From positions 1 to 17,723 of the forward strand of contig CAXGMD010000072.1 in assembly GCA_964010765.1 (NCBI GenBank): DNA of 17,723 nucleotides, read 5' to 3'. Below the pieces are notes generated by a model. The model ran no database searches, was not told where the DNA came from, and was given only the letters and a program-made list of their open reading frames with translations. Shown piece by piece: positions 875-17,723 of the stretch. The translations under genes were made by a program, and so were the position numbers. Every line of letters starts with the position of its first letter. The stretch's first letter is position 1. This DNA comes from an uncultured bacterium (GTDB lineage: Bacteria; SAR324; NAC60-12).

Positions 875-1342
875 TCAATCATCAGAAAGAGGGCTCGTTA
901 GCCATTCCAACATATCTTTACTCGTAGAGATTAGGTACCCCCCGGCTCCTTTCAATCCTGAAACAAATCCAACCACCGTTTTTTGAGTGATACTGTCATC
1001 ACAGGATCCTTGTTGCTCCAGCCAGTGCACTGTATTTCCAACGACAACAACACTTCCTGAGACAATCAAAGAACCTGCGGATACAGTTATTGCACCAGCA
1101 GTGACAATGGCTAAGTTTGCCAGAACACATTCAGCATCTGGGCAACCCCGAGTAGCACCCGAGAGTCCTTCAATCACAATTGAATCAGAGTTGTCGAATC
1201 CTTTGACCTCCAGCGACCACTCCTTCGTAACCAGTTGACAATCGTAGTTCTGGTTTGGTTTGGTCTCTGGAACGAAGCAAGAACTCGTTAGCAAACAAGC
1301 AACTAATACTGAAAAATACTTAGAATTTTTTCGAATCATCAT
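875..1342 (-). CDS. Hypothetical lipoprotein
   Basis: 155-aa ORF with a basic N-terminus (RKNSK), a hydrophobic stretch and lipobox-like Cys (LVAC at 16 or TSSC at 22). It has four further Cys and an internal Gly/Ala/Val-rich hydrophobic segment. Confidence 0.65.
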   Translation of the reverse strand: MMIRKNSKYFSVLVACLLTSSCFVPETKPNQNYDCQLVTKEWSLEVKGFDNSDSIVIEGLSGATRGCPDAECVLANLAIVTAGAITVSAGSLIVSGSVVVVGNTVHWLEQQGSCDDSITQKTVVGFVSGLKGAGGYLISTSKDMLEWLTSPLSDD

Positions 1343-1376
1343 TTAACTAAATTTGTAAAAGAAAGATCGTTTCTTA

Positions 1377-2819: not shown

Positions 2820-2822
2820 TAA

Positions 2823-3500
2823 ATGAGAAAAAAATTACTTTTTATTTATGCATTACTATTTTTTGCTTCTTTCTTTATTTTTTATTTTTTTTATCTTACA
2901 GAAAACGTTGAAAAATTTAATAGTCAAATAGAAAAAAATATTGAAAGAAATCTTTCAATAGATTGGGGCCCAAAAGAACCAAAACTTTTTGCAGAAGGAT
3001 ATTCTGCAGATATTTCTAATCTATCTTTAAATTTTGATAAATTTATCATTGAAATTCCGGCACATGATAAATCTCACATTCTAAATTTAGCAGAAAGATT
3101 AGTTTTTGACGAATGTAATTTTAAAATAAGTTTGATCTTCCTTCTTTTAGATCTTTATTGTAAAAAACTTACTACAAAACATGAAAATTCTATATTTGAT
3201 CCAAACACAGAGATTCTTTATTCCAACAACTTTTATTTTGATAATGATATTTTTCAGAGACTATTTAGTCGATTTAGATTTTTCGATCTCAAGTTTCATT
3301 TTGACGAGGTCTTAATTAACAATGTTTTGACACAAAATATTAATGGTGAATTGGAATTTCATAACGCTGAAAATGCGACTTTAACTATTGATGATCAGTT
3401 CATTGAATTTTTCAACAGATCAGAAGGTCTTGAGATTCAATATCAAAATCAGATTTTTTTCTTTTTGAACCAAAACTTCTTCCAACACTTTTGGAACTAA
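2823..3500 (+). CDS. Hypothetical protein with N-terminal membrane anchor
   Basis: 225-aa ORF in extremely AT-rich DNA, where long ORFs are unlikely by chance. It starts 3 nt after the upstream stop and begins MRKK followed by ~20 hydrophobic residues. Confidence 0.65.
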   Translation: MRKKLLFIYALLFFASFFIFYFFYLTENVEKFNSQIEKNIERNLSIDWGPKEPKLFAEGYSADISNLSLNFDKFIIEIPAHDKSHILNLAERLVFDECNFKISLIFLLLDLYCKKLTTKHENSIFDPNTEILYSNNFYFDNDIFQRLFSRFRFFDLKFHFDEVLINNVLTQNINGELEFHNAENATLTIDDQFIEFFNRSEGLEIQYQNQIFFFLNQNFFQHFWN

Positions 3501-3627: not shown

Positions 3628-4335
3628 ATGGCTCTTCGTTCGCAAAAATCCGATACCGAGACGATCCGCATCAATCGTCGCTTGCCTATCGTTCCCCAAG
3701 TGCACTCAACTCTACATCACTTGATTGTTCATTGTGTGCTTCCACCTGGTTCCCCCATCCGCGAGAAAGATCTGAGTGAACAAATGGAAGTTTCTCGAAC
3801 ACCAATTCGAGAAGCACTGTTGCAACTTGAGAAAGAAGGCCTTGTCGAGATCTATCCGCAATCTGGAACACGTATTTCCAAAATTAGTATGGAGGAAGTG
3901 CGTGAGAGTCATTTCATACGTGAAGCCATGGAAAGTGCCACTGTCCGATTTGCGGCACAACAGGGTGATTCTCAATTATACAAACAACTGAACACCCGTT
4001 TGCAAGAATTCGAGGCTGCCTTAGGCACCGCTGAAAAAGATCTCTTGTTCGAATTGGATGAACTCTTTCATAAAACGATAGCGGAATTCCGCTTCCAGAA
4101 TAGACTCTGGAAAATCACAAATATCGCAAAATCACACATGGATCGTGTTCGGCACTTAACCCTTCCACTCCCAAAAAGGATTTATGAAATTGCTGATGAA
4201 CACCAACGAGTTACTGATTGTATTACCCAGCACCAACCAGACGACGCTGTGAGAGCAATCAAGGATCACCTTAGCGTGATTTTTTCCGATATTGAGCGAA
4301 TTCGAGCAGAACATTCAGAATATTTTGTTGAATAA
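3628..4335 (+). CDS. GntR-family (FadR/FCD) transcriptional regulator, RspR/YdfH-like
   Basis: wHTH motif PGSPIREKDLSEQMEVSRTPIREALLQLEKEGLV and FCD domain (LDELFH...DRVRH...EHQRV...HL). IVHCVLPPG and KISMEEVRESHFIREAME closely recall E. coli YdfH/RspR (comparison from memory). Confidence 0.93.
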   Translation: MALRSQKSDTETIRINRRLPIVPQVHSTLHHLIVHCVLPPGSPIREKDLSEQMEVSRTPIREALLQLEKEGLVEIYPQSGTRISKISMEEVRESHFIREAMESATVRFAAQQGDSQLYKQLNTRLQEFEAALGTAEKDLLFELDELFHKTIAEFRFQNRLWKITNIAKSHMDRVRHLTLPLPKRIYEIADEHQRVTDCITQHQPDDAVRAIKDHLSVIFSDIERIRAEHSEYFVE

Positions 4336-4359
4336 CTTTTCATCTAAACATATTTACTA

Positions 4360-5211
4360 ATGCCATATCTAACCCCAACTCAACTTTCCGAATTTGAACA
4401 AAATGGATTTCTGATTGAAAGAAACCTTTTTGATCCTGAAGAAACACAACTACTTCAGAAAGCTGCAAAAGATGATCAGGAACTGGATCGCCGAAGCCAA
4501 GGAAGAAGAGACAGGTCTGGTGCCACAGTCCGCCTTACACTTTGGAATCACCCGGGAGAGGGCATTTACGGAATGTTTGCCCGTTGCAAAAAGCTTGTTG
4601 GCAGAATGGAAGAACTGCTTGGCGGAGAAGTCTACCATTATCATTCAAAAATGATCCTCAAAGACCCTGAAATTGGAGGTGCTTGGGAATGGCATCAAGA
4701 TTATGGTTACTGGTATCACTATGGTTGCCTCCAACCTCTGATGGCGAGCGCTATGATAGCAGTAGATCCTGCCAAAGTAAGCAACGGTTGTCTCGAAGTT
4801 CTGAAAAGAAGCCATGTTCTAGGCCGCCTTGATCATTCCTTAGCTGGAGAGCAATCCGGTGCAGACCCTGAAAGAGTAGGGATCGCCATGAAGCGCTTCG
4901 ACAGAGTTGCAGTTGAATTGGAACCTGGCGACACACTGTTTTTTCACTGCAATCTTCTGCATTGTTCGGGTCAAAATCACTCCCCTGATCCTCGCTGGGC
5001 AATGATTTGTTGCTATAACGCTGCCCGTAATAATCCATTTAAAACCTCTAGACATCCTCAGTATACTCCTCTAGAGCAAGTGGATGACTCCCTTATCAAA
5101 ATGGTTGGTCTGAAAAGATTCAGTGAAGGTGGAGAGGTTGATTTTATGGGTGATAATGTTGATCGAAGCATCCCCGCAGATCTTCACAAACCAATGTCTG
5201 AAACAATATGA
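4360..5211 (+). CDS. Phytanoyl-CoA dioxygenase (PhyH) family Fe(II)/2-oxoglutarate dioxygenase
   Basis: N-terminal LTPTQLSEFEQNGFL, facial triad WHQD...LLHCS, NGCL...SH, PGDTLFFH, and the 2OG-binding Arg in NHSPDPR. Confidence 0.92.
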   Translation: MPYLTPTQLSEFEQNGFLIERNLFDPEETQLLQKAAKDDQELDRRSQGRRDRSGATVRLTLWNHPGEGIYGMFARCKKLVGRMEELLGGEVYHYHSKMILKDPEIGGAWEWHQDYGYWYHYGCLQPLMASAMIAVDPAKVSNGCLEVLKRSHVLGRLDHSLAGEQSGADPERVGIAMKRFDRVAVELEPGDTLFFHCNLLHCSGQNHSPDPRWAMICCYNAARNNPFKTSRHPQYTPLEQVDDSLIKMVGLKRFSEGGEVDFMGDNVDRSIPADLHKPMSETI

Positions 5212-6407
5212 GACCAACCACTGGAATTCGTCTCAGTTGGCCTGAGCTCAGAAAATTTTTGCACCAACATCTCACTGAACATGTTCTCCCATTCTGGTTT
5301 CCGAAACTGATTGATCTGAAACACGGGGGCTTGAACAATTGTGTTCATGATGATGGTGAAGTTCTCTCCACCGAAAAATATCTTTGGTCACAGGGCCGAG
5401 CTCTTTGGGTGCTGAGCAAACTTTTTAATGACATTGATCAGGATTCTAAATGGCTGGAGATGGCGGCTCCTATCTCAAAATTATTAACAGGTTATGGGAG
5501 GAATACCGGTGGAGATTGGTATTTCAGTTTAAACGCAGACGGCACCCCTGCAAAAGAACCTCAATCTATCTATGTAGATGGTTTCTGTATTTATGGGCTG
5601 ACAGAATATGCGAAAGCAACTGGTCACTCAAAGAGTCTGGACATAGCTTTGGAGGCTTACACCCACGCGAGTCCCAAGTTAGAGGATCATCGCTTAGTAA
5701 GAACAATGCCTCACCCAATTCCAACTGGGTTCCAGTCCCATGGTCCCCTGATGTTGTTTGCGCATGTTTTTCATGAACTGGGAATCCTGAGTGGCAGAGA
5801 TGACATCAAGCAGCGAGCCCTTGAATTGGCAGAAAGGATTCTATCTCAACATCTTGATCCTGAGTCCGGCCAACTTCATGAGTTTGTGGTTCCTGGTGGT
5901 CAAAAAAATTCCAGTGACATTGGACAGACAGCAATTCCAGGGCATGTGGTGGAAAGCATGTGGTTTTTGGAAGAGATCTATCGCTATCATGGTCAATCTG
6001 AAAAGATTCCATTATTGCTGGAGACCATGCGTACCCATCTTGAGCTTGGCTGGGACCAGCAATTTGGGGGTTTGGTTCTAGCGACTCATCTTGGAGATGG
6101 GAAGCCCAAGTGGCACAATCCGTATGGTAAAATCTGGTGGCCCCACACAGAAAGTCTACAAGCACTGCTGATGGCTTACGCTCATAAAAGAGAAAAATGG
6201 GCTGAGGACTGGTACTGGAAAATCCATGATTACAGCTTCACTCACTTTCCCAATTGGGATTCAGGAGACTGGTTTCACAATCTGGATCGTGAGGGAAAAC
6301 CGACGGTTCCCTATTTACAAACTCTTCCGGTTAAGGATCCTTTTCATTTGCCCAGAGCCCTAATTTATTCAATTCAAATCCTTGATCAACTTGGAGAAAC
6401 ATCATGA
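5208..6407 (+). CDS. AGE-family epimerase, N-acyl-D-glucosamine 2-epimerase-like
   Basis: Motifs VLPFW...D..HGG, KYLWSQGRALW, PGHVVESMWF, GWDQQFGG, KIWWPHTE, GDWF and KDPFHLPR, with both catalytic His retained. ATGA overlap with the upstream stop. Confidence 0.9.
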   Translation: MRPTTGIRLSWPELRKFLHQHLTEHVLPFWFPKLIDLKHGGLNNCVHDDGEVLSTEKYLWSQGRALWVLSKLFNDIDQDSKWLEMAAPISKLLTGYGRNTGGDWYFSLNADGTPAKEPQSIYVDGFCIYGLTEYAKATGHSKSLDIALEAYTHASPKLEDHRLVRTMPHPIPTGFQSHGPLMLFAHVFHELGILSGRDDIKQRALELAERILSQHLDPESGQLHEFVVPGGQKNSSDIGQTAIPGHVVESMWFLEEIYRYHGQSEKIPLLLETMRTHLELGWDQQFGGLVLATHLGDGKPKWHNPYGKIWWPHTESLQALLMAYAHKREKWAEDWYWKIHDYSFTHFPNWDSGDWFHNLDREGKPTVPYLQTLPVKDPFHLPRALIYSIQILDQLGETS

Positions 6408-7180
6408 CTACGTCTGATCCTCAAAAACGTTGGCTTATCGACCAACTACCTGTTGAATTGTACGCTAGTAACGAAGAACTCGGACAGGCAGCGGCAAAGA
6501 AAGCTCAACAAATCTTAAGTGAGGCAATCGACAAAAAAGGATTCGCTAACTTGATATTGGCAACCGGGAATTCTCAACTAACTTTTTTAAAAGCGTTGAG
6601 AAATTTGGGGGATGTTGATTGGCAGAAAGTCAGAATCTTCCACATGGACGAGTACATTGGAATCAATCCATCCCACCCAGCTAGTTTCCCTCTGTTCTTG
6701 GAAAACCATTTTCTTCAATTTACCAAGCCTGGTCATTTTCATCCCATTCCGAGTGAGACTTCGGATGTGGATTCCGCCTGCAAGGCCTATGAGGCATTGA
6801 TTCGTCAACACCCTGCTGATCTTGTCGCAATGGGATGGGGAGAAAACGGACACATTGCCTTCAACGATCCTCCAGATGCACATTTTGATGACCCACATTG
6901 GGTAAAAGTCGTCGAACTAGCAGAGGAAAGCCGCCTTCAGCAGGTTGGCGAAGGTCATTTTACTTCACTGGATGAAGTACCAAAACAGGCGATTACCTTG
7001 ACAATTCCTGCTCTTCTAGCTCCAGTACACATCCTTTGTATTGTTCCTGAAGCGAGAAAGGCTTCGGCTGTAAAGGCCTGCCTATCCGAACCGGTGGATG
7101 AATCTCGGCCAGGCTCTATCCTGAGAACAATTTCACATGCTACCTTATTGCTGGATCAAGATTCAGCTTCGCTACTCTAA
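6404..7180 (+). CDS. Glucosamine-6-phosphate deaminase-like protein (NagB/6PGL superfamily, divergent subfamily)
   Basis: LATGNSQ, FHMDEYIG, HPASF, GWGENGHIAFNDP and VPKQAITLTIP motifs. GGAG RBS and ATGA overlap with the epimerase stop. Confidence 0.88.
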   Translation: MTTSDPQKRWLIDQLPVELYASNEELGQAAAKKAQQILSEAIDKKGFANLILATGNSQLTFLKALRNLGDVDWQKVRIFHMDEYIGINPSHPASFPLFLENHFLQFTKPGHFHPIPSETSDVDSACKAYEALIRQHPADLVAMGWGENGHIAFNDPPDAHFDDPHWVKVVELAEESRLQQVGEGHFTSLDEVPKQAITLTIPALLAPVHILCIVPEARKASAVKACLSEPVDESRPGSILRTISHATLLLDQDSASLL

Positions 7181-7272
7181 ATTATCCAACAATGGAGTTG
7201 CCTATGCTTTAAATTATGGGTAAATGACAGCAGTCTTTTGTCCAATGAGTTCATTTCATTCCAAAAATCTTC

Positions 7273-7288
7273 ACTAACTGGAGTTAGT
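7273..7288. promoter_or_regulatory. Perfect inverted repeat, candidate transcription-factor operator upstream of the SBP gene
   Basis: ACTAACT-GG-AGTTAGT has 7-bp arms and a 2-nt spacer, and sits immediately before the RBS (AAAGAGGA) of the gene at 7305. Confidence 0.5.
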
Positions 7289-7304
7289 AGAAAGAGGACA
7301 CTTC

Positions 7305-9215
7305 ATGAAACGATCTACTTTTCTCAAATCTCTCATTGCTCTTGGTTTTTCTGCGATCATTGGGAGCACAGGAGCAATTGCAGGGGAATCCCCTGATCTT
7401 GCAGCTATGGTCAAAGCAGGGACATTGCCACCCTTGAATGAGCGTCTCCCCGAAATTCCATTGATGCTGCCTGTTGTTGACGAAATTGGTCAATACGGTG
7501 GCACACTTCGTCGCGCGTTTCTGGGGCCTGGTGACCACAACAACTATACAAGAGCTGTCTACGACGCACTGGTTCGTTATGCACCAGACGGAAGCCAAAT
7601 TGTTCCTCATATCGCTGCAGGTTGGGAATCTAACGAGAATTTCACGGAATGGATTATTCGCCTGAGACCAGGAGCTAAATGGTCAGACGGCACACCATTC
7701 ACCGCTGATGACATTATGTTCTGGTACGACAATATCTTGATGAACCAAGAACTAATGCCTGGTGGTGTTGGCTGGATGAAAAACGGAGATGGTTCAATGG
7801 CCTCAGTCCAAAAGCTTTCGGACTACCTGGTCAAGTGGACCTACAAGCAGCCAAACACAGCCTTCCTGCTGAACATGGCCAACCTGGATGGGGCTGACAA
7901 ATCAATCAGCAATTTGGTATTTGTCCCAGCTCATTATTTGAAGCAATTCCATCCGGATCACACCAGCAAGGCTAGCTTGGATGCCAAGGTCAAAGAAGCA
8001 GGTTTTGATACCTGGACCCAACTATTCGCGGTGGAAGCACTCCCACATTTGAGCGGTAATCGTCCTGGCATGGCGGCTTGGGTTCCAGATGGAACAACTG
8101 TTTCGGATCAGGTTTTCACGATCAAACGTAATCCGTATTTCGTTGGAGTCGATCCACAGGGCAACCAACTCCCCTATATTGACGAAATTCGCTTTACCTT
8201 CTTTGCAGACAAGGAAGCTTTGAACCTTGCAGCAGTCGCGGGTGAGATTGATTTCCAGGGGCGTCACATCAACATGAGTAGCTATCCTGTTCTCAAAGAA
8301 AACGAGAACAACGCAAACTATCGTGTGGTTACCTGGCCAACTTTTGGAGGCTCAGATGCTGTTGTGATGCTGAACCAAACGTGGACAGGTCCTGAAGGTG
8401 AGTACTTCCGCGATAAGAACTTCCGCATCGCGCTTTCTCACGCAATTGATCGAGATGCCATCAAGGAACTGGCGTTCTTCGGCCTTGGTGAAGCTCGTCA
8501 AGGAGTCCCTGCCCCCTTCCACCCTTACTACCCTGGAGATGAATACGCTTTCCGCTATACCGAGTTCAAACCAGAAGAAGCCTCGGCAATGTTGGATAAA
8601 GTTCTTCCAAACAAAAACAGCGATGGACATCGCTTGATGTCAAATGGACAGGTTCTGGACATTGAAATTGGGGTTGTCCCTCAATTTGGTGCTTGGCCAG
8701 ATATCGCACAATTGATTGTGGAGAATTGGGCAGAAGTCGGAGTCAAAGCACACGTGGAAATTCGTGAGCGAGCTCAACACTTCTCGATGCGTCCGGCCAA
8801 TGAGTTGATGTCAGAGGTCTGGAACGAAGACACGACGGGCTTCCCTTTCAGCGGTCAACCTAAGTTTGATCCTCGAAGTGATCCAGCTCTGACTTTTGCA
8901 CCCTTGGTTGCCAAGTGGTATGCGTCCGGCGGTAAGGAAGGACAGGCTCCACCTGCTGAAATCAAGCGCTTGGTCGACATCATTGATGAAGCCAAAACTT
9001 CTGGACGTAATCGGCAAATCGCTCTAGCCAAAGAACTCTTCCAAATCTGGGCTGACAATGTCTGGGAAATTGGAACTGTTGGGATGACCCCAATGATCCA
9101 GGGAGTTCTGGTTGCGAATGATAAGCTGCGTAACGTTCCAGCTGTTGCTGGAAACGACTGGCCTCTGCGTACTCCTGGAGATACACGTCTCGAGCAGTAT
9201 TTCTATTCACGCTGA
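7305..9215 (+). CDS. ABC transporter substrate-binding protein, family 5 (OppA/DppA-like, probably carbohydrate-binding)
   Basis: Signal peptide ending AIA-GE; LPPLNERLP...GQYGGTLR; LRPGAKWSDGTPFTADDI family-5 signature; RNPYF..D..GNQLPYID; FRIALSHAIDRDAI. Strong RBS. Confidence 0.95.
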   Translation: MKRSTFLKSLIALGFSAIIGSTGAIAGESPDLAAMVKAGTLPPLNERLPEIPLMLPVVDEIGQYGGTLRRAFLGPGDHNNYTRAVYDALVRYAPDGSQIVPHIAAGWESNENFTEWIIRLRPGAKWSDGTPFTADDIMFWYDNILMNQELMPGGVGWMKNGDGSMASVQKLSDYLVKWTYKQPNTAFLLNMANLDGADKSISNLVFVPAHYLKQFHPDHTSKASLDAKVKEAGFDTWTQLFAVEALPHLSGNRPGMAAWVPDGTTVSDQVFTIKRNPYFVGVDPQGNQLPYIDEIRFTFFADKEALNLAAVAGEIDFQGRHINMSSYPVLKENENNANYRVVTWPTFGGSDAVVMLNQTWTGPEGEYFRDKNFRIALSHAIDRDAIKELAFFGLGEARQGVPAPFHPYYPGDEYAFRYTEFKPEEASAMLDKVLPNKNSDGHRLMSNGQVLDIEIGVVPQFGAWPDIAQLIVENWAEVGVKAHVEIRERAQHFSMRPANELMSEVWNEDTTGFPFSGQPKFDPRSDPALTFAPLVAKWYASGGKEGQAPPAEIKRLVDIIDEAKTSGRNRQIALAKELFQIWADNVWEIGTVGMTPMIQGVLVANDKLRNVPAVAGNDWPLRTPGDTRLEQYFYSR

Positions 9216-9226
9216 GTCACACTCCT

Positions 9227-9259
9227 TGCGGTCTGACTTCTTTTTGGAGCCAGACCGCA
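9227..9259 (+). terminator. Intergenic stem-loop after the SBP gene (transcript stabiliser or partial terminator)
   Basis: TGCGGTCTGACTTC-TTTTT-GGAGCCAGACCGCA forms a 14-bp stem with one mismatch and one G-U pair. There is no downstream U-run. Confidence 0.65.
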
Positions 9260-9288
9260 CTCCAAACGTCTGTCCCAGACATTCCTGA

Positions 9289-10278
9289 ATGCTAATCTAC
9301 ATTATCAAGCGGCTCCTGCTGTTGCCGTTCTTGCTACTGATCTTTTCTATCATCGCCTTCCTCTTGATCCAAGCTCCTCCTGGTGACTTTCTAACCAGCT
9401 ATATTGCTGAATTAGCAGCATCAGGTTCCTCGATGGAAAGGGCCCAGATTGATGCGCTGCGGGCGCTCTATGGCCTTGATCAGCCCATGTATCTCCAATA
9501 TTTCAAATGGATGGGAAGAATCCTGACTGGAGACCTAGGAGTCTCATTGGATTGGCAACGTCCCATTAGTGAGCTAATCGGTGAGCGCATGGGGCTCACC
9601 CTTGCCCTTGGCTTGGGAACATTTGTATTTACATGGTTGATTGCGATTCCGATTGGGATTTTCTCAGCTACACGCAAGTACTCTTTTTTTGATTACTTCT
9701 TCACTGTTTTTAATTACTTCGGTGTTGCCACACCAACCTTCATGACCGCTTTAGTCCTGATGTGGATTGCCTTCAAATACTATGGCGTGAGCATTACAGG
9801 ACTTTTCTCGGCAGAGTACATTGACGCTCCCTGGAGTTGGGATCGAGTTGTAGATTTGTTGCAGCACTTATGGCTCCCCGTTGTCATTCTTGGGTTGGAT
9901 GGAACTGCCCGGCTTGCCAGAGTGATGCGAGCCAACTTGCTCGACGAGCTAAAAAAACCCTATATGGAGATGGCAAGGGCTAAGGGCCTCTCCGAGTGGC
10001 GTCTCGTCATGAAATATCCTGTCCGTTTAGCACTGAATCCTCTTGTCAGTACGATTGGCTGGTATCTACCTCTCATCTTTTCTGGAAGTGTGATTGTCGC
10101 AACGGTAATGAATTTGCCCACGATAGGCCCCATGCTACTTAGGGCTCTGATCAGTCAGGATATGTTTCTGGCAGGCACAATCATTCTCTTCTACATGATG
10201 CTGGCAGTGGTTGGTACATTGATTTCTGACATCCTCTTGGCTTGGCTGGATCCAAGAATTCGACTGGATGAGGAGTGA
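9289..10278 (+). CDS. ABC transporter permease (OppB/DppB-like)
   Basis: YIIKRLL start, YGLDQPMYLQYFKWM...GDLGVS, EAA-loop equivalent YMEMARAKGL, DMFLAG and LDPRIR. Confidence 0.95.
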   Translation: MLIYIIKRLLLLPFLLLIFSIIAFLLIQAPPGDFLTSYIAELAASGSSMERAQIDALRALYGLDQPMYLQYFKWMGRILTGDLGVSLDWQRPISELIGERMGLTLALGLGTFVFTWLIAIPIGIFSATRKYSFFDYFFTVFNYFGVATPTFMTALVLMWIAFKYYGVSITGLFSAEYIDAPWSWDRVVDLLQHLWLPVVILGLDGTARLARVMRANLLDELKKPYMEMARAKGLSEWRLVMKYPVRLALNPLVSTIGWYLPLIFSGSVIVATVMNLPTIGPMLLRALISQDMFLAGTIILFYMMLAVVGTLISDILLAWLDPRIRLDEE

Positions 10279-10279
10279 G

Positions 10280-11782
10280 ATGTTACAAAAGTCAGAAAAT
10301 AAACCCAATATTGTTTTGATCGTGCCGGATCAACTCCGACCTGACTTTCTTGGGTGCTACGGTGCGAAGTTCATTCAAACCCCTAATATCGATAAGCTTG
10401 CCCAACAAGGGTTACAATTCAATCGGGCCGTATCGCCCTCCCCAATCTGCATTCCAGCTAGGGCATCCCTACTCACAGGACACAATGCCCTCTCCACTGG
10501 AGTGTTAACGAACAATTACTGGCTGCGCCCAGATCATGAGGATTGTGGTCTTCTCAGTATTACCAGCATCTTATTAGAAAACGGCTATCACACTGAGGGG
10601 ATCGGCAAGATGCACTTCATCCCCTGGGACCAAGAGGCGGGGTTCAGTCATCGATGGATTGCTGAAGACAAGCGCCACATCCATATTCAGGATGACTACG
10701 CTGATTATTTAGCAGCACAAGGTCTTCGGAAGCTTGCTGGAACAGAAGAACCTAACTACCGCGAGGGCCGAATGGCTTCGGTCAGCCCAATCCCGTTGGA
10801 ACATCAAGTAGATGTTTGGGTTGGAGATCGGAGTGTGGAGTTCATCAAGGATTGTCCTCAGGATAGACCATACTTTCTGTGGGTGGCTTTTCCAGGACCC
10901 CACGATCCTTATAATCCACCTGCAGAAATTCTTAATTCCATGCGCCCGGCAGAAGAGTTTCCCTTCTCAATTCCTGGAACATTTGACAGTCAGACCTTCC
11001 AAAGAGGGTTTATCCACGCCCACCTCAGTGGATCAGCCCAAGCAGATTTTCGAGAGTTTCCGGAACTAGCCAAACAGATCATTCGACGACACTATGCAGG
11101 TTTGGTTCAGATCATTGATCACCAAGTCGGAAAAATTTTAAGTGCTATCGAAGAGCAAGATTCTGAGCGTGAGACACTGATCATCTTCACATCAGATCAC
11201 GGTGATTTTCTGGGTGATTTTGACATGGTTGGCAAAGCTTTATTCTACGAATCTTCTTCTCGTGTACCCCTGATCGCGAGAGGAACGCCATATCGGGTTG
11301 GACAATCCAAGAGCTTGGTTTCGTTGACTGATCTTTATGCAACAATCCTCAATCACGCGGGAATAAAGATGATAGCTCAGGACTCCCAAGCAATCCCCAC
11401 AAAGCCTGATCAGCAGACTCGTAAACACATCATAGGAGCCACAGGTGCTGGGCTGATGTGGTGCGACGAGCGCTGGAAATTATCACGCTACAAGAATGGA
11501 CTTAGTACTTTGTTTGATTTGGAAGCGGACCCCCTCGAACAAAACAACCTACTTCTTGATCCTGATTTTGCTGATATTCGGAACCAGGTGGAAGCAGAGT
11601 TAACCAAATCTTTGATGGAAGGTCTGGTTCAGGGTCATCAAGAAAAATCATATCCCTACATGACACTTACGCCAGATCATGATGGGCATCATCGAAATTG
11701 GCAGCGCCCCTATCCAGCCAATACATGGGACAAATTTGAGGAAATCAAAGCCAATTGGGGAAAAGCAGGAATGCCCGTATGA
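10280..11782 (+). CDS. Formylglycine-dependent (Cys-type, S1) sulfatase, cytoplasmic
   Basis: KPNIVLIVPDQLR, TPNIDKLA, SPICIPARASLLTG (CxPxR), GKMH, PHDPY, FTSDHG and LFDLEADPLEQNNL. Start placed at ATG 10280 behind GAGGAG rather than 10268. No signal peptide. Confidence 0.92.
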   Translation: MLQKSENKPNIVLIVPDQLRPDFLGCYGAKFIQTPNIDKLAQQGLQFNRAVSPSPICIPARASLLTGHNALSTGVLTNNYWLRPDHEDCGLLSITSILLENGYHTEGIGKMHFIPWDQEAGFSHRWIAEDKRHIHIQDDYADYLAAQGLRKLAGTEEPNYREGRMASVSPIPLEHQVDVWVGDRSVEFIKDCPQDRPYFLWVAFPGPHDPYNPPAEILNSMRPAEEFPFSIPGTFDSQTFQRGFIHAHLSGSAQADFREFPELAKQIIRRHYAGLVQIIDHQVGKILSAIEEQDSERETLIIFTSDHGDFLGDFDMVGKALFYESSSRVPLIARGTPYRVGQSKSLVSLTDLYATILNHAGIKMIAQDSQAIPTKPDQQTRKHIIGATGAGLMWCDERWKLSRYKNGLSTLFDLEADPLEQNNLLLDPDFADIRNQVEAELTKSLMEGLVQGHQEKSYPYMTLTPDHDGHHRNWQRPYPANTWDKFEEIKANWGKAGMPV

Positions 11783-11804
11783 ATCATTTTGCGCGAGCCT
11801 ACAG

Positions 11805-12938
11805 ATGACTTCTCAAACTACCTTGAGCAGTGAAGTCAGCGAAAAGATTAAGGATGAGGCCTTTGACGTAGCCCCTAATTGGAAGCTTGTCTGGTGGCGT
11901 TTCAAGAAGCATCGGTTAGCTTTAGTCAGTGCATTCGTACTGTTTGGGATCATTCTAATTGCCTTGTTCCCTGATTTCTTCAGTATCCAAGATCCCAACA
12001 AATCAAGCGCTCGTGAATCTTTCATGCCGCCTCAGGGGATATCCTTTTTCCACAATGGAAGTTTTCAGGTCCATGTCAAACCACTCAAAGGGAAACGGAA
12101 TAAGACAACGCTTAAGATGGAGTGGGGAGTCGATGAGAAGAGAATTTTACCACTACATTTCTTCACAAGTGGTTATGAATACGAGGTTTTTGGGCTTTTC
12201 AAAACAGATCTACACCTCTTTGGTATTGAAAAACCGTCTGCTCGGAATTCGTTCCACCTACTGGGTACCGATCGTTTAGGCCGTGATCAGTGGTCTCGAC
12301 TGATGCATGGAACCAGAGTTTCACTTTCAATCGGGCTAGTCGCGGTTGGACTCAGTATTTTTCTTGGGATTCTGCTCGGTGGAATCTCAGGATATTACGG
12401 AGGCTGGCCTGACTTGGTCATTCAAAGATTGATCGAGATCCTTCAATCACTGCCACCTATTCCAATCTGGATGGCCTTGACTGCTGCCTTGCCCAGAGAC
12501 TGGACGGTAGAGCAGACTTACTTTGCGATCACTCTCATTCTTTCTCTACTGGGTTGGACCACACTCGGTCGAGAGGTTCGTGGTAGATTTTTGTCATTGA
12601 GAGAAGAAGACTTCGTCATGGCTGCAAAACTCTCTGGTTGCAGCCAAAGTCGTATCATCTTCCGACACATGCTACCCACCTTCACAAGTCACATCATTGC
12701 TACCAGTACTCTGGCGATTCCGGTAATGATCATTAACGAAACATTTTTAAGTTTCTTAGGTCTCGGTTTGCGTCCGCCTGCAATCAGCTGGGGTGTACTC
12801 TTACAAGAAGCGCAGAATCTTCAGTCGATTGCCCTGGCTCCTTGGTTGTTGCTTCCTGGCTTGGCTGTCATCTTTACCGTTCTTGCGCTGAACATCCTGG
12901 GGGATGGCTTGCGTGATGCCGCCGACCCTTACAGTTGA
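11805..12938 (+). CDS. ABC transporter permease (OppC/DppC-like)
   Basis: WWRFKKHRLA, LLGTDRLGRDQWSR, EDFVMAAKLSG, ETFLSFLGLG..PP..SWG and GDGLRDAADP. Start placed at ATG 11805 to avoid a ~100-nt overlap with the sulfatase. Confidence 0.95.
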   Translation: MTSQTTLSSEVSEKIKDEAFDVAPNWKLVWWRFKKHRLALVSAFVLFGIILIALFPDFFSIQDPNKSSARESFMPPQGISFFHNGSFQVHVKPLKGKRNKTTLKMEWGVDEKRILPLHFFTSGYEYEVFGLFKTDLHLFGIEKPSARNSFHLLGTDRLGRDQWSRLMHGTRVSLSIGLVAVGLSIFLGILLGGISGYYGGWPDLVIQRLIEILQSLPPIPIWMALTAALPRDWTVEQTYFAITLILSLLGWTTLGREVRGRFLSLREEDFVMAAKLSGCSQSRIIFRHMLPTFTSHIIATSTLAIPVMIINETFLSFLGLGLRPPAISWGVLLQEAQNLQSIALAPWLLLPGLAVIFTVLALNILGDGLRDAADPYS

Positions 12939-12946
12939 GAACAAAA

Positions 12947-13978
12947 ATGACAAATCAGCCCTTGCTGGAAGTCCGGGATCTGCAGACTGTTTTTGAACTT
13001 GATGAGGGGACCGTCAGAGCGGTTGATGGAGTCAGCTTTAATGTGTATCCAGGTAGAGTTTTAGGGATTGTTGGTGAAAGTGGCTGCGGCAAAAGTGTAA
13101 CCATCAAGTCCGTCCTACGATTGATCGAAGAACCCGGCAGAATTGCCAACGGTGCCATTCGCTTCCGGTCAAAAATTCTGGGTAATTCCTCTGCTGAGAT
13201 GGTTGATCTCGTTCAATTACCTGCTAAGAGTGCCCAATTGAGAGCCCTGCGAGGGAATGAGATCGCACTGATTCCCCAAGAACCCATGGCTGCCTTCAGT
13301 CCAGTGCATACCATTGGCAATCAATTGATGGAGGTGATTCAACTCCATCAACCCGTCAGTGACGGAGAAGCAAAAAAAATTGCGGTAAATCGTCTCAAAG
13401 AAGTTGGAGTTCCAAATCCAGAAAGCGCAATAGATCGCTATTCTTGGGAACTGAGTGGCGGGCTTCGTCAACGCGCAATGATCGGAATGGCTCTTACCTG
13501 TGATCCACTTCTTTTAATAGCTGATGAACCCACCACAGCCATTGATGTCACCACACAGGCTCAGGTGCTGAGCCTGCTGCGTAAGCTTCAGCAGGAGCAT
13601 CAGACATCAATCATCTTCATCACCCATGACCTTGGGGTGATCGCCCAACTCGCGGATGATGTCGTGGTGATGTACCTAGGCAAGGTGATGGAGAGCGGCC
13701 CAGTTGATCAAATTTTTCATAATCCCCAACATCCCTACACGCGGGCTCTACTAAGGTCTATCCCAACCGTCTACACAAAGAATCGTAGTCGTCTACCAAC
13801 GATCTCAGGATCAATTCCTCACCCATTCCAAAAGCGCACTGGCTGTCCCTTCGTGGCTCGCTGCCAAGAGGCTCTTCCAGAACAGCGGTGTGCCAATCAA
13901 GCACCAGCACTCAAAGCAATCAATGAACACCAATCAGTGAGTTGCTTCCTTCATGGAGAGGAGGTCAATGTCAGCTGA
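12947..13978 (+). CDS. ABC transporter ATP-binding protein (OppD/DppD-like)
   Basis: Walker A GESGCGKS, signature LSGGLRQR, Walker [14 protein letters not shown], and the C-terminal oligo_HPY region HPYT...[11 protein letters not shown] 12947 preferred over TTG 12935. Confidence 0.95.
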
Positions 13979-15032
13979 ACCAACCCAATCAACTTTGACC
14001 AATAATGCGCTCATATCTCCGGAGCGTTTGCTAGATGTTAAAGAGTTGAAAAAATATTTTCCTATCCGAAAGGGGGTTTTTAAAAGTGTAGTCGGCCAAG
14101 TACGATCTGTTGATGGGGTTACATTTCATTTAAACCAGGGAGAGACCTTAGGACTTGTGGGTGAAAGTGGCTGTGGAAAAACAACCACCTCCCGCTGTCT
14201 GCTGCGTGCCATAAATCCAACATCCGGTGAAATTCGTTATCGACAAGCTGATGGACAATTGGTGGATGTGACACAACTAGCCAGTGACCAACTGAGACCT
14301 GTACGTCGGGAAATGCAGATGATCTTTCAAGATCCATTTGCCTCTCTCAATCCTCGAATGAACCTACTGGATCTTGTCGGTGAACCTCTTTTGGTCAACG
14401 GTGTCGCCAATCGCAAAGAACGAAGCGATCGAGTCGCTGATCTGCTTCGTCTTGTGGGCCTGAGACCAGAATATATGCGTCGGTTTCCCCATGCGTTTAG
14501 TGGAGGTCAACGACAAAGAATCGTGATTGCCCGCGCCCTGGCACTCAATCCTCGTCTGGTTGTAGCCGATGAACCAGTCTCTGCTTTGGATGTTTCAGTA
14601 CAGGCCCAGGTACTCAATCTATTGCTGGATCTCCAGGAACAGTTGAAGCTGACGTACCTGTTTGTTGCCCATGACTTGAGTGTCGTCCGTCACATTAGCG
14701 ATCGTGTGGCCGTAATGTATGTGGGCCGGATCGTAGAAATGTCTCCAACGGATGAGCTTTTCCTGGCACCAAAGCACCCCTACACCGCAGCTTTGCTATC
14801 AGCCGTACCGGTTGCTGATCCTAGAATTCGCTCAAAGATGCAACCCTTGGAAGGTGACGTGCCCAGTCCTTCCAATCCCCCTAACGGCTGTCATTTTCAT
14901 CCCAGATGTCCCTTTGCCACTGAGTTGTGTCGGCAACAAGCACCAGACTTGGAAGAAGTCCAACCTAATCACTTCGTGGCCTGTCATCGGCAAGCTGAGT
15001 TAAAATTGTCTGGTGTCTCTGAGCCAACCTGA
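13968..15032 (+). CDS. ABC transporter ATP-binding protein (OppF/DppF-like)
   Basis: [37 protein letters not shown] and HPYT...[11 protein letters not shown] 13968 lies behind a GGAGGT RBS. Confidence 0.95.
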
Positions 15033-15044
15033 TCCTAGTAAAAC

Positions 15045-16169
15045 ATGCTCTTTTCAGCTGACCAAAAAGTTCACGTCGACAAGCAAGGGGCTCTAAAAGA
15101 GTCCCTTCAGACGGTTGATGGCACATTTCAATCTGAACGAAAGAGGACCCTTGGGTTGTGTGATATCCAGCTCAATGGCTTTGCTGGCATTGATTTTAAC
15201 AATCCAAACTTAAACCCCGAAGATTTTCATCGATCGATGCAGGCTCTCCTAAGAACTGGAGTGACCAACGTACTTCCGACATTGATCACTGCTAACCAAG
15301 GTGATCTGTATCGAAACTTTGAAGCATTGGAGAGGGCACGGGCGTTCTCTCCCATTGCCCAGATGATGGTGAAAGGATATCACCTGGAGGGACCTTTTCT
15401 CAATCCAGCCCAAGGTTTTGCAGGTTGCCATCCATCCCAGTTCATGGGTAGAAAGCCATCTTGGGAAAAGTTTGTGAGTTGGCAAGCTGCAGCAGGAGGT
15501 CGAATAAAGCTTCTAACTGTGGCTCCAGAGATGCCCGGTGTTCTTGAATTGATTACCAAATGCGTTGAAAGTGGGGTCCGCGTATCCCTCGGTCATACAA
15601 ACGCTTCGCACGAAGATATCCGAAAAGCTGTGGGGGCTGGGGCATCGTTGTCAACACACTTGGGCAATGGTGTTGCTCAGTTATTACCAAAGGTTGACAA
15701 TCCGATCTTGAGCCAACTTGCTGAGGAAGGTCTTACTGCCAGTTTTATTGCGGATGGCTTTCATCAGAAACCTCATGTACTGCGCGTCTACATCAAAGCC
15801 AAGGGTTCAGACCGAACCATCTTAGTCAGTGATGGAACTGCAGCTTCAGGGACAGTTCCTGGAACCTATTACTTAGGTGCTACAAAGATTCAGTCCAAAC
15901 CTGAGGGTGTGGTGCATCTCTTTGGAACCCAGAATCTTGCTGGTTCAGCGGCAACTCTGCTGGAATGTCTGCAAAATGTCATGAGTTGGTACAACACCTC
16001 TCTGGAACAAGGAATTCGCTGGACCTCAATCCAACCTAGAAAGCTTTTGGGCTGGCCAACTACACAAAATGTTGGAGATCTTGCTGAATTGTTGGAGTGG
16101 GAATACATCAATGATCGATGGACCCCAGCATCTGTTCAACTTGGCACGCAGATCATCAAAATTCATTGA
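15045..16169 (+). CDS. N-acetylglucosamine-6-phosphate deacetylase-like amidohydrolase (NagA family, divergent THLGNG type)
   Basis: DIQLNGFAG, LPTLIT, HLEGPFLN, GCHP, TVAPE, SLGHTNA, THLGNG, IADGFH, VSDG and LAGSA. Confidence 0.88.
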   Translation: MLFSADQKVHVDKQGALKESLQTVDGTFQSERKRTLGLCDIQLNGFAGIDFNNPNLNPEDFHRSMQALLRTGVTNVLPTLITANQGDLYRNFEALERARAFSPIAQMMVKGYHLEGPFLNPAQGFAGCHPSQFMGRKPSWEKFVSWQAAAGGRIKLLTVAPEMPGVLELITKCVESGVRVSLGHTNASHEDIRKAVGAGASLSTHLGNGVAQLLPKVDNPILSQLAEEGLTASFIADGFHQKPHVLRVYIKAKGSDRTILVSDGTAASGTVPGTYYLGATKIQSKPEGVVHLFGTQNLAGSAATLLECLQNVMSWYNTSLEQGIRWTSIQPRKLLGWPTTQNVGDLAELLEWEYINDRWTPASVQLGTQIIKIH

Positions 16170-16213
16170 AGAAACAACTGGAAGCACACAAAAACTCAAA
16201 TGGAGCGATACTA

Positions 16214-17644
16214 ATGAAACCCTCTTCGCCATTTAATCACCCAGATAGACTGTTCAGTTCAGATCCATCCCAACGCAATGTTGCGCGAAGGCTTTTTGAG
16301 GAAGTTCGTGATCTACCCATCGTTAGTCCACATGGTCACACCGATCCAAGTTGGTTTGCTCTAAACCAAAATTTTGGGAATGCAACAGAACTGTTCCTGA
16401 TTCCTGACCATTACCTATTCAGAATGCTCTACAGCCAGGGAATTTCCCTAACAGATTTGGGAATTCCGACCCGTGATGGCTCACCTACAGAGAACGATCA
16501 CAGGAAAATTTGGCGAATATTTACTGAGCATTATTATCTATTTCGTGGGACTCCCTCCAAGATTTGGTTCGATCACGCCCTCCATGAGGTTCTAGGGATC
16601 AACATTCCCATGTTGCCGGAGAATGCCGACCAAATTTACGACGAAGTGAACGCAAAACTCTCAAGCGAAGCCTTTCGTCCGCGTGCCTTGTTCGAACGCT
16701 TTCAAATCGAGATCCTGGCAACAACTGAATCTCCTCTAGATCCCCTGACTCACCATCAAACTCTTAAAGATTCAGACTGGCAGGGTAATGTCATTACCGC
16801 TTTCCGTCCAGATCCGGTGGTTGATCCTGAATTTGAGGGTTTTGCTGAGAATATTGAGAAGTTGGCTGAAACTACCGGAGAAAACGCTCTTACTTGGGAT
16901 GGATATCTCAAGGCCTTGCAACAGCGAAGAGAATATTTCAAGTCGATGGGAGCCGCCTCCACAGATCATGGGCACCCAACCGCGACTACAGCAGATCTTT
17001 CTCGAGCCGAATGCGAACGACTCCTGACGGGAGCACTTGCAGGGAAACTGAGTGCAGAAGAAGCAGATCAGTTTCGAGGGCAAATGATGACGGAAATGGT
17101 GAGGATGAGTCTGGACGATGATCTTGTTGTTCAGTTGCATCCAGGTTCATTCCGTAATCATAATCAACCGCTCTTCGAACGGTTTGGCCGTGACAAAGGA
17201 GCGGATATTCCAATGGCAACTGACTATGTCAATGGTCTGAGGCCACTACTAAATAAATTTGGCAATGAACCTCGACTCAGCATGATTCTGTTCACTTTGG
17301 ATGAGACCAGCTATAGCCGAGAGTTAGCTCCACTCGCTGGACACTATCCCATCCTCAAGCTAGGCCCTGCCTGGTGGTTCTATGACAGTCCTGAAGGGAT
17401 GTTACGCTTCCGTCGACAAACGAACGAAACCACGGGCTTTTACAACACTGTTGGTTTCAATGATGACACCCGAGCTTTCATGTCGATCCCTGCTAGACAC
17501 GATTTGGCTCGACGAATTGACTGCCGCTATCTTGCTGAACTTGTTTGTGAACATCGAATGAGCGAAGAGGAAGCAAGGGAAGTTGCCATTGATCTAGCCT
17601 ACCGGCTCGTAAAGAAAGCTTATCGATTCAATGAGGAAAAATGA
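16214..17644 (+). CDS. uxaC: Uronate (glucuronate) isomerase
   Basis: LPIVSPHGHTDP, PDHYLFRMLYSQG, FRGTPS, TDHGH, QLHPGSFRNHN, RELAPLAGHYP, GPAWWF, GFNDDTRAF and PARHD. Start at ATG 16214 behind GGAG. Confidence 0.96.
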   Translation: MKPSSPFNHPDRLFSSDPSQRNVARRLFEEVRDLPIVSPHGHTDPSWFALNQNFGNATELFLIPDHYLFRMLYSQGISLTDLGIPTRDGSPTENDHRKIWRIFTEHYYLFRGTPSKIWFDHALHEVLGINIPMLPENADQIYDEVNAKLSSEAFRPRALFERFQIEILATTESPLDPLTHHQTLKDSDWQGNVITAFRPDPVVDPEFEGFAENIEKLAETTGENALTWDGYLKALQQRREYFKSMGAASTDHGHPTATTADLSRAECERLLTGALAGKLSAEEADQFRGQMMTEMVRMSLDDDLVVQLHPGSFRNHNQPLFERFGRDKGADIPMATDYVNGLRPLLNKFGNEPRLSMILFTLDETSYSRELAPLAGHYPILKLGPAWWFYDSPEGMLRFRRQTNETTGFYNTVGFNDDTRAFMSIPARHDLARRIDCRYLAELVCEHRMSEEEAREVAIDLAYRLVKKAYRFNEEK

Positions 17645-17723
17645 GTCGCGCAGTAGCACTGCTAGAAAAATTTGGTAATCGCTACCCCCGAGAATCCTGT
17701 GGAATTGGTATTGTTCATCTCGG
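17641..17723 (+). CDS. Mannitol dehydrogenase family oxidoreductase, probably fructuronate reductase (UxuB-like); 5' end only
   Basis: ATGA overlap with the uxaC stop. It reads MSRAVALLEKFGNRYPRESCGIGIVHLG, and Y-x-R...GIVHLG is the N-terminal signature of the mannitol dehydrogenase/UxuB family. Not in the ORF track because it runs off the window. Confidence 0.8.
   Translation, partial: MSRAVALLEKFGNRYPRESCGIGIVHL

Follow-up and report, generated by a model that had tools for sequence, protein, structure and literature searches.

Introduction

Catabolism of N-acetylglucosamine (GlcNAc) and N-acetylmannosamine (ManNAc) proceeds through NagA and NagB in the nag operon of Escherichia coli, and an AGE epimerase and a ROK kinase take part in the Bacteroides-type route. 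Hexuronates enter the isomerase pathway, in which UxaC and UxuB are followed by UxuA (E. coli) or by the ManD variant. Among systems acting on small sulfated sugars, Streptobacillus imports glycosaminoglycan disaccharides through an ATP-binding cassette (ABC) transporter and then employs an unsaturated glucuronyl hydrolase, a sulfatase, and KduI/KduD-like steps, and the GlcNAc-6-sulfate cluster of Bifidobacterium breve comprises a transporter, a sulfatase, and a maturase. This study concerns an operon that joins members of several of these families in a bacterium of SAR324, a widespread, uncultured deep-ocean lineage whose diet in organic matter is poorly known. The operon is located on contig CAXGMD010000072.1 (C72), the entire 17.7 kb (17,723 nucleotides) of which form the window analyzed here, and it had been read in an initial annotation, made from the sequence alone, as a possible kinase-free route for the degradation of amino-uronates.

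The SAR324 operon resembles the pathways of GlcNAc and ManNAc catabolism in that proteins of the AGE, NagA, and NagB families are present, with NagA and NagB catalytic residues that align with those of E. coli; it differs in the absence of a kinase and of GH20, in nag-like proteins that score below the curated cut-offs, and in the position of these genes among uronate genes and genes for a sulfatase and a dioxygenase. As in the hexuronate pathway, a UxaC that passes its cut-off is followed by a UxuB-like protein, and ManD passes in relatives; unlike in that pathway, the genes share a unit with those of amino-sugar enzymes and of an importer that includes a sulfatase gene, the reductase scores below its cut-off, and 2-keto-3-deoxy-6-phosphogluconate (KDPG) aldolase was not found in the genome. 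With the Streptobacillus system, the operon would share the import and desulfation of a small sulfated unit of N-acetylhexosamine and uronate, the two halves of which would be catabolized separately; in contrast, it has no GH88 in operon or genome, uses UxaC and UxuB rather than the 4-deoxy-uronate route, relies on another transporter family, and adds AGE and a PhyH-family dioxygenase. As in the B. breve cluster, a cytoplasmic sulfatase is encoded beside a transporter for a presumed sulfated amino sugar, whereas no anSME or formylglycine-generating enzyme (FGE) maturase gene adjoins and uronate and dioxygenase genes are added. All genes of the operon come from known families, and import, desulfation, and split catabolism follow a logic that is already known; the build is unusual, with a cytoplasmic sulfatase within an Opp-type block, a dioxygenase, a distinct clade of NagB-like proteins, and neither glycosidase nor kinase. 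No description of the cluster itself was found in the open literature (listings and abstracts, with subscription journals outside this coverage).

The identities of the genes, the conservation of the operon, and its linkage to uronate genes are directly established. We tentatively favor, at somewhat less than an even chance, the explanation that the operon imports a sulfated fragment holding an N-acetylhexosamine and a hexuronate, desulfates it in the cytoplasm, and catabolizes both parts; what we infer is which class of substrate is used, in which order the steps follow, and that a kinase acts in trans. Under GntR/FCD control, the substrate of this catabolic operon would be a small, sulfated, acidic glycan fragment, either glycosaminoglycan-like or derived from a microbial or algal sulfated heteropolysaccharide. 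An Opp/Dpp-type ABC importer, with a binding protein of an oligosaccharide- or oligouronide-binding branch, would take up the fragment, and a cytoplasmic formylglycine sulfatase encoded within the transporter block would strip the sulfate. The hexosamine would then be brought into the gluco configuration by AGE, phosphorylated by the kinase encoded in trans, deacetylated by the NagA-type protein, and deaminated by the NagB-type protein, and the uronate would pass to fructuronate (UxaC), mannonate (UxuB-like protein), and 2-keto-3-deoxygluconate (ManD). In this scheme, a place is found for the type of importer, for a sulfatase in the cytoplasm, for the AGE, NagA, and NagB homologs, for the UxaC, UxuB, and ManD branch, and for the NagA partners that pass their cut-off in other phyla.

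Organization and conservation of the operon

The assembly to which the window belongs (G000) comprises 3.86 Mb and is 92% complete; related genomes are designated Gnnn, compared loci Lnnn, and the NagB-like and NagA-like proteins NagBl and NagAl. All 16 open reading frames (ORFs) of at least 100 amino acids in the window were scanned against Pfam and NCBIfam. From 3628 to 17723, genes follow one another co-directionally on the forward strand, from a regulator gene to the start of a UxuB-like gene. The initial annotation had let the unit run from 5208 to 17723; the genes in this interval are present, but the unit starts upstream, with a GntR/FCD-family transcription regulator (3628..4335; Pfam GntR 3.2e-16, FCD 7.3e-20) and a PhyH-family Fe(II)/2-oxoglutarate dioxygenase (4360..5211; PF05721, 118.7 bits against a cut-off of 22). 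These are followed by an AGE-family N-acylhexosamine 2-epimerase homolog (5208..6407; PF07221, 1.1e-35) and a divergent, predicted NagB-type deaminase/isomerase, NagBl (6404..7180; TIGR00502, 131.3 bits against 236.9). The importer block consists of a periplasmic SBP_bac_5 binding protein of 636 amino acids with a signal peptide (7305..9215; Pfam, 5.3e-53), an OppB/DppB-type permease (9289..10278; Pfam BPD_transp_1), a Cys-type (formylglycine) sulfatase predicted to be cytoplasmic (10268..11782; PF00884, 4.7e-44, 151 bits), an OppC/DppC-type permease (11805..12938; Pfam OppC_N and BPD_transp_1), and OppD-like (12935..13978) and OppF-like (13953..15032) ATPases, both matching Pfam ABC_tran and oligo_HPY as well as NCBIfam. 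The unit continues with a predicted NagA-type N-acetylhexosamine deacetylase, NagAl (15045..16169; TIGR00221, 197.7 bits against 225.65), the glucuronate/galacturonate isomerase UxaC (16214..17644; NCBIfam NF002794, 574 bits against 387), and the first 27 codons, identified by translation, of a UxuB-like reductase of the mannitol dehydrogenase family, cut by the contig end (17641..17723).

Stop and start codons overlap between the PhyH and AGE genes, the AGE and NagBl genes, and the UxaC and UxuB-like genes, which indicates tight coupling, and 11 bases (10268-10278) are shared by the end of the first permease gene and the sulfatase ORF. The ORF of the second permease opens at 11679, within the 3' end of the sulfatase gene, and its likely start at 11805 matches the 377-residue proteins of relatives; likewise, the UxaC ORF opens at 16118, with a likely start at 16214 (compare the 476-residue protein of the same genus). 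No ROK, NagK, or phosphotransferase system (PTS) protein was found by Pfam or NCBIfam among the 16 ORFs. The clustering of AGE, NagA-like, and NagB-like genes with UxaC and a UxuB-like start, and the lack of a kinase or PTS gene in the window, both stated in the initial annotation, are confirmed by these profiles; its gene list, by contrast, omitted the importer, the sulfatase, and the PhyH gene, all parts of the conserved core. A search for an inverted repeat upstream of the regulator gene found none.

Strong orthologs of NagBl are encoded in 9 of 41 related genomes, G000 counted; six of these genomes belong to the genus of G000, and the other three represent two further genera. The same-genus genomes keep the gene order, with 85-98% protein identity, and the other genera keep the core, with 52-95%; the clustering is therefore not due to chance. 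This core runs GntR-PhyH-AGE-NagBl-binding protein-first permease-sulfatase-second permease-two ATPases, with ends that vary in the other genera, and the regulator is kept before PhyH in relatives (52-91% identity). G005 and G002 show the identical order, continued by UxaC, the UxuB-like gene, and an Ldh_2 dehydrogenase gene, beyond which lie unrelated genes on the other strand. In G009 and L027, there is no NagA-like gene and the importer leads straight to UxaC and the UxuB-like gene, with ManD also divergent upstream in G009; in G020, neither a NagA-like gene nor UxaC adjoins the core. ManD, GntR, and UxaC stand ahead of PhyH in L053, the order GntR-UxaC-PhyH-AGE recurs in L053, L084, L089, and L091, L063 has NagAl-UxaC-UxuB-like, in L030 the UxuB-like gene directly follows NagAl, and L025 has an aldo-keto reductase (AKR) gene between AGE and NagBl. 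Twelve SAR324-type metagenome loci typically read GntR-UxaC-PhyH-AGE-AKR-NagBl-importer with sulfatase-NagA-like, with the UxuB-like gene or ManD divergent upstream; the AKR gene separates AGE from NagBl in half of them (6/12). These gene orders give good support to a functional tie that joins the nag-like genes and the importer with its sulfatase to the UxaC/UxuB/ManD branch.

Two of the metagenome loci carry, between UxaC and PhyH, a gene of the FA_desaturase family of membrane di-iron oxygenases (L089:4969-6120 and L091:4722-5867).

Uronate branch

The UxaC match to NF002794 covers profile positions 3-459 of 459. The UxuB-like gene begins with the ATG at 17641, and its 27 codons within the window (MSRAVALLEKFGNRYPRESCGIGIVHL) correspond to the N-terminus of the mannitol-dehydrogenase-family protein encoded after UxaC in a same-genus genome; the remainder (residues 22-494, 93% identical to the G005 protein), followed by an Ldh_2 dehydrogenase gene, lies where another contig of the assembly, C56, ends. 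Among NCBIfam profiles, the G005 ortholog matches fructuronate reductase best (NF011611, 468 bits), under the cut-off of 603. ManD genes of relatives score 765 (G009) and 746 bits against a cut-off of 550. In G000, a ManD ortholog (83% identical) is located beside a TRAP transporter on contig C10, and the near-identical metagenome contig L066 suggests that this ManD/TRAP region lies about 12 kb upstream of the operon. The regulator gene is divergent to the ManD (RspA-family) gene in G009/L026, L053, and L083. The initial annotation had called the regulator RspR-like; its GntR/FCD family and its position opposite ManD in relatives agree with that name, and the profiles confirm the assignment as far as the GntR/FCD family.

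Importer, sulfatase, and dioxygenase

The Opp/Dpp-type importer is complete (7305-15032), comprising a family-5 binding protein, two permeases, and two oligo_HPY ATPases. The OppB-type permease is 87-99% identical in relatives that have the SAR324-type importer, including a locus from Gammaproteobacteria (L029). The structures nearest to the binding protein are 5ipw (Thermotoga "OppA", with no known ligand), SPH1118 (E 3.7e-73), and the alpha-galactoside binder AgpA. SPH1118 of Sphingomonas sp. A1, the closest relative with a known ligand, binds pectin oligomers/oligogalacturonides and works with an ABC importer (PMC9314435). The two systems share the same long SBP_bac_5 branch, in which SPH1118 is a peptide-type protein used for acidic oligosaccharides, whereas the SAR324 importer has a sulfatase inside the transporter block and is accompanied by amino-sugar enzymes. 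By sequence comparison, the binding protein belongs to a probably sugar-binding branch of the peptide-type family that is compatible with acidic oligosaccharides.

The sulfatase carries the C-I-P-A-R motif followed by ASLLTG; it has no signal peptide and begins straight with the catalytic domain, which argues for a cytoplasmic location. Its gene is lodged between the two permease genes, in the same place in SAR324 relatives, and the copies in named relatives, which are SAR324-cluster or "Deltaproteobacteria" genomes, are 87-93% identical. Across G000 there are 12 sulfatase and 8 FGE-domain matches; no anSME or FGE maturase gene adjoins the operon, the FGE-domain genes being located elsewhere in the genome. 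More distant sulfatases (50-58% identical), from Alphaproteobacteria and Granulosicoccus, are encoded beside other Opp-type importers. In several loci, their neighborhoods hold lactonase, MR_MLE dehydratase, and short-chain dehydrogenase/reductase (SDR) genes, which points to a sugar-acid context.

The alphaproteobacterial sulfatase orthologs of L031 and L034-L036 are 55-58% identical, and those of L034, L035, and L036 neighbor an Opp-type importer of another kind. SMP-30 lactonase and MR_MLE dehydratase genes lie near the sulfatase in L031 and L035, together with an extended-SDR gene in L031 and a short-chain dehydrogenase gene in L035; a UxuA-like gene lies near it in L034, and GntR regulator genes do so in L034, L035, and L036. 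From their gene content, these loci appear to encode a route of oxidative sugar-acid type that acts on a sulfated substrate. ORFs in high-GC loci were called by a crude, greedy longest-ORF procedure in which some real genes gave way to spurious ORFs; L034 and L035 are examples, and such neighborhoods are therefore only partly read.

The PhyH dioxygenase tends to travel with cytoplasmic sulfatases. PhyH homologs (43-44% identity) lie near the sulfatase relatives in Granulosicoccus, where the order is PhyH-sulfatase-NagBl-importer (L032), and in two alphaproteobacterial loci, and G000 itself has a second operon, IclR-PhyH-GFO/IDH/MocA-MR_MLE-cytoplasmic sulfatase, on contig C134 (L147:1607-6382). 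The family is numerous in this genome, with 26 matches in G000 against none in 14 control genomes. The protein has an H-x-D motif at residues 112-114, and its nearest solved structures are free amino-acid hydroxylases, including the leucine hydroxylase 5nch and ectoine hydroxylase. These neighborhoods prompted the idea of PhyH as a possible formylglycine maturase of the sulfatase, which was not adopted; with 8 FGE-domain and 26 PhyH matches in the genome, about one chance pairing is expected.

An oxidative route would give the dioxygenase a direct part in sugar breakdown. PhyH would act on the sugar, either by oxidative deamination followed by keto-reduction by AKR or Ldh_2, or by stepwise oxidation at C6, turning the amino sugar into a uronate for UxaC. 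KanJ and KanK of kanamycin biosynthesis are a model for the version with oxidative deamination and keto-reduction. The translational coupling of PhyH to AGE, the presence of PhyH in all 12 SAR324-type metagenome loci, the AKR gene between AGE and NagBl in six of these and in L025, and the further oxygenase-family gene in L089 and L091 are consistent with such a route, which would also give UxaC a role. However, the nearest solved relatives hydroxylate free amino acids, NagBl would become redundant, and with 26 PhyH matches in the genome the occurrence of one in a given operon is less telling. We regard the oxidative route as improbable.

NagA- and NagB-like proteins

NagBl and NagAl are the only NagB and NagA homologs in G000; the check for separate canonical nagA and nagB genes, suggested in the initial annotation, found no others. 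In the route proposed in that annotation, ManNAcA would be converted to GlcNAcA (AGE), glucosaminuronate (NagAl), and D-fructuronate with release of ammonia (NagBl), a C6 carboxylate standing in for the 6-phosphate; fructuronate would feed UxuB and then ManD. In SAR324, the sulfatase and perhaps PhyH may then prepare sulfated or otherwise modified N-acetyl-aminouronates after import. In E. coli NagB, Asp72 and His143 are catalytic and Lys208 binds the anion; D72, H143, and K208 align with D82, H150, and K219 of NagBl. Compared with E. coli NagB, E148 is replaced by Asp, the loop TGGT by TGNS, and R172 is not kept. The loss of R172 was dropped as a clue to the anion site: ordinary SAR324 NagB also lacks it, and three alignments (MAFFT, two phmmer) disagree locally. 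Relative to ordinary SAR324 NagB, NagBl is about 30% identical, and across 40 sequences of its clade the motifs ATGNSQL, FHMDEY, GENGH-AFNDPP, SR-QQVGEGHF, and VPE-RKA show little or no variation. ESM Atlas gave only generic names ("glucosamine-6-phosphate deaminase family"), and no assayed member of the clade was found.

Metal binding and catalysis in E. coli NagA involve E131, H195, H216, D273, H143, and H251. All six align in NagAl, and the position of R227 is occupied by Lys, as in both SAR324 NagA groups. The cluster-linked NagA copies group apart from those of nagB-nagA operons (56-64% identity within the cluster-linked group, 43-52% between the groups), a separation that is compatible with a different substrate. 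For AGE, Pfam PF07221 gives 124 bits against a cut-off of 23.4 and NCBIfam NF052547 249 bits against 600; the AGE structures 6f04 and 2gz6 in the Protein Data Bank match the protein at 8e-62 and 3e-60.

A separate and tightly conserved NagBl clade with its own motifs (ATGNSQL, GEGHF) and the E148 to Asp replacement, together with the grouping of the cluster-linked NagA copies, would fit the amino-uronate route. On the other hand, K208 and further invariant Arg and Lys residues are kept, both NagA groups have Lys in place of R227, and no carboxylate-specific change is demonstrable. The conserved motifs of NagBl hold several basic residues that could bind any anion, and the site thus cannot discriminate among phosphate, carboxylate, and sulfate. 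The active-site comparison is equivocal as to the probable substrates of both proteins.

The wider distribution of NagBl adds evidence from other phyla. A metagenome scan with the NagBl alignment recovered at least 534 relatives, and we analyzed 41 loci of at least 6 kb, 12 of SAR324 type and 29 of other origin, the latter mostly of high GC content, with no PhyH and no close sulfatase. NagBl orthologs in other phyla are 57-68% identical. A NagA homolog is encoded in 23 of the 29 non-SAR324 loci; NagBl was called in 28 of the 29, and in 18 of these the NagA gene immediately precedes it. The NagA partners scored in three loci reach 255-273 bits, all above the TIGR00221 cut-off of 225.65. These partners provide the strongest argument that the clade may perform ordinary chemistry on glucosamine-6-phosphate (GlcN-6-P), within a particular ecological setting, and the usual pairing with NagA homologs, three of which pass the GlcNAc-6-phosphate deacetylase cut-off when scored, speaks against the amino-uronate route. 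An Opp-type importer of the same kind occurs in the non-SAR324 loci, 13 of which encode an ATPase homolog and 8 a binding protein; AGE and UxaC are each found in 6. No sulfatase lies between the permeases in these loci, and the only sulfatases, in 5 of the 29, are 25-28% identical.

UxaE follows UxaC in L073, L077, L094, and L132 (the four loci in which the following gene was scanned) and in L145, with URO-D-like proteins nearby. The full module in these five loci is NagA-NagBl, then one to three URO-D/MtaA-like genes, UxaC, and UxaE (tagaturonate epimerase), with a GalU-like nucleotidyltransferase gene and a GHMP kinase gene after UxaE in some of them. No description of this UxaE/URO-D-like/NagB module was found in the open literature (listings and abstracts).

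Kinases and glycosidases

No sugar kinase is encoded in or adjoining the cluster in any relative examined, including G005, G002, G009, G020, and the SAR324-type metagenome loci. The only PfkB gene near the cluster (L030) pairs with a pseudouridine-glycosidase-type gene two genes further. Of the kinases in the 29 non-SAR324 loci, an adjoining ROK occurs in one, and L094 and L145 each have a single kinase in another context, of the GHMP and FGGY types, respectively. Whether homologous clusters consistently lack a kinase was a check proposed in the initial annotation, and none was seen, the operon of G005 and G002 ending after Ldh_2. The amino-uronate route gains from this absence in and behind the cluster, from G000 having no other nagA or nagB, and from genus g1 having no second ROK. 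Ordinary SAR324 nag loci, however, are organized as GntR/UTRA, a sugar ABC importer, GH20, nagB, and nagA in G018 and G024, with variants in G019 and G021, and in these four genomes no kinase was seen near the GH20-nagB-nagA loci either; the absence of a kinase is thus not diagnostic in this lineage.

G000 has a single full-length ROK kinase (C61:106-990), encoded beside parC, whose best NCBIfam match is fructokinase (244 bits, below the cut-off); the kinase that would act in trans could be this protein. A second ROK paralog, 39-43% identical to this one, is encoded in G009, G011, G018, G019, G020, G021, G024, and G027, and is a candidate GlcNAc kinase that would be encoded away from nag loci.

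The fructokinase-like character of the sole ROK bears on a further explanation, in which a 6-O-sulfate takes the place of the 6-phosphate: GlcNAc-6-sulfate, or ManNAc-6-sulfate after epimerization by AGE, would be deacetylated and deaminated, the sulfatase would free fructose, and ROK would phosphorylate it. Three further points would suit this route: the core of the cluster includes a cytoplasmic sulfatase, NagBl retains the Lys of the anion site, and GlcNAc-6-sulfate is a substrate of E. coli NagA. Yet NagBl orthologs (57-68% identity) occur in clusters without a close sulfatase, and the chemistry of the clade is accordingly independent of sulfate; moreover, UxaC, UxuB, ManD, and PhyH would have no role. 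We consider this explanation the least probable of those weighed.

The amino-uronate route has further points in its favor. The nag-like genes are tied to the UxuB-like gene and ManD in several gene orders, L030 among them, a monosaccharide substrate needs no glycosidase, and no catabolic route for N-acetyl-aminouronates was found in the open literature (listings and abstracts), a gap that it would fill. Against it, UxaC is conserved yet would be superfluous, the core sulfatase and PhyH are left unexplained, and the binding-protein family is known for oligosaccharides. The proposal is weakened because ordinary nag loci also have no kinase, NagA partners pass their cut-off, UxaC is not needed, and the sulfatase and dioxygenase were ignored; we regard it as unlikely.

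Several observations weigh against the explanation we favor, the import and split catabolism of a sulfated fragment of N-acetylhexosamine and hexuronate. The operon has no dedicated kinase, which is a weak point of the scheme, and the ROK of G000 looks like a housekeeping hexokinase, its orthologs being present in 21 of 24 family genomes, including genomes without any nag gene; in addition, six of the eight genomes with the second ROK also have an ordinary-type NagB, and genus g1 has neither. NagBl (TIGR00502) and NagAl (TIGR00221) both fall under the NCBI curated equivalog cut-offs. G019 has one NagA of each group, a cluster-linked copy and an ordinary nagB-nagA pair, and G009, G020, and G021 have an ordinary-type NagB in addition to the NagBl ortholog; the low scores and this coexistence are hints that NagBl and NagAl may act on a different substrate. 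Neither glycoside hydrolase nor lyase was found in the operon or in SAR324 relatives, and the genome G000 gave no GH88 match, no GH20 (tblastn), and one weak GH2_C match (27 bits); the scheme thus has no enzyme for splitting a di- or oligosaccharide. In the non-SAR324 loci, glycoside-cleaving enzymes were seen only in L115 (a GH127) and in L123 (a PL22 lyase, accompanied by KduI and KduD). The PhyH, Ldh_2, and AKR genes have no role in the scheme, and KDPG aldolase (PF01081) was not found in the 92%-complete genome, which leaves the end of the pathway incomplete.

Other features of the window

Upstream of the operon, a segment of low GC content (875-3500; 30-35% compared with a genome-wide value of about 46%) contains three ORFs, 155, 480, and 225 amino acids long, for which Pfam, NCBIfam, and PADLOC gave no match. 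They are kept in a same-genus genome (95, 72, and 68% identity) and on two metagenome contigs, and the segment resembles an insertion that separates the operon from the TRAP/ManD region. At 251-766, a TRAP DctP binding-protein ORF covers only profile positions 134-279 of 286, the N-terminal half being missing; its counterpart in the same-genus genome is also short (138 amino acids), and the ORF in the window is possibly a gene remnant.

Significance for SAR324

The NagBl clade is common in metagenomes, and there is a modest chance that it hides new chemistry. If the amino-uronate route were true, it would represent a kinase-free link through which amino-uronic acids from bacterial and archaeal surface polymers enter the hexuronate pathway. 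Under the explanation that we favor, import, desulfation, and catabolism of both parts of a sulfated fragment, the operon points to the uptake by SAR324 of acidic sugar fragments that contain both sulfate and nitrogen and would serve at once as sources of carbon, nitrogen, and sulfur.

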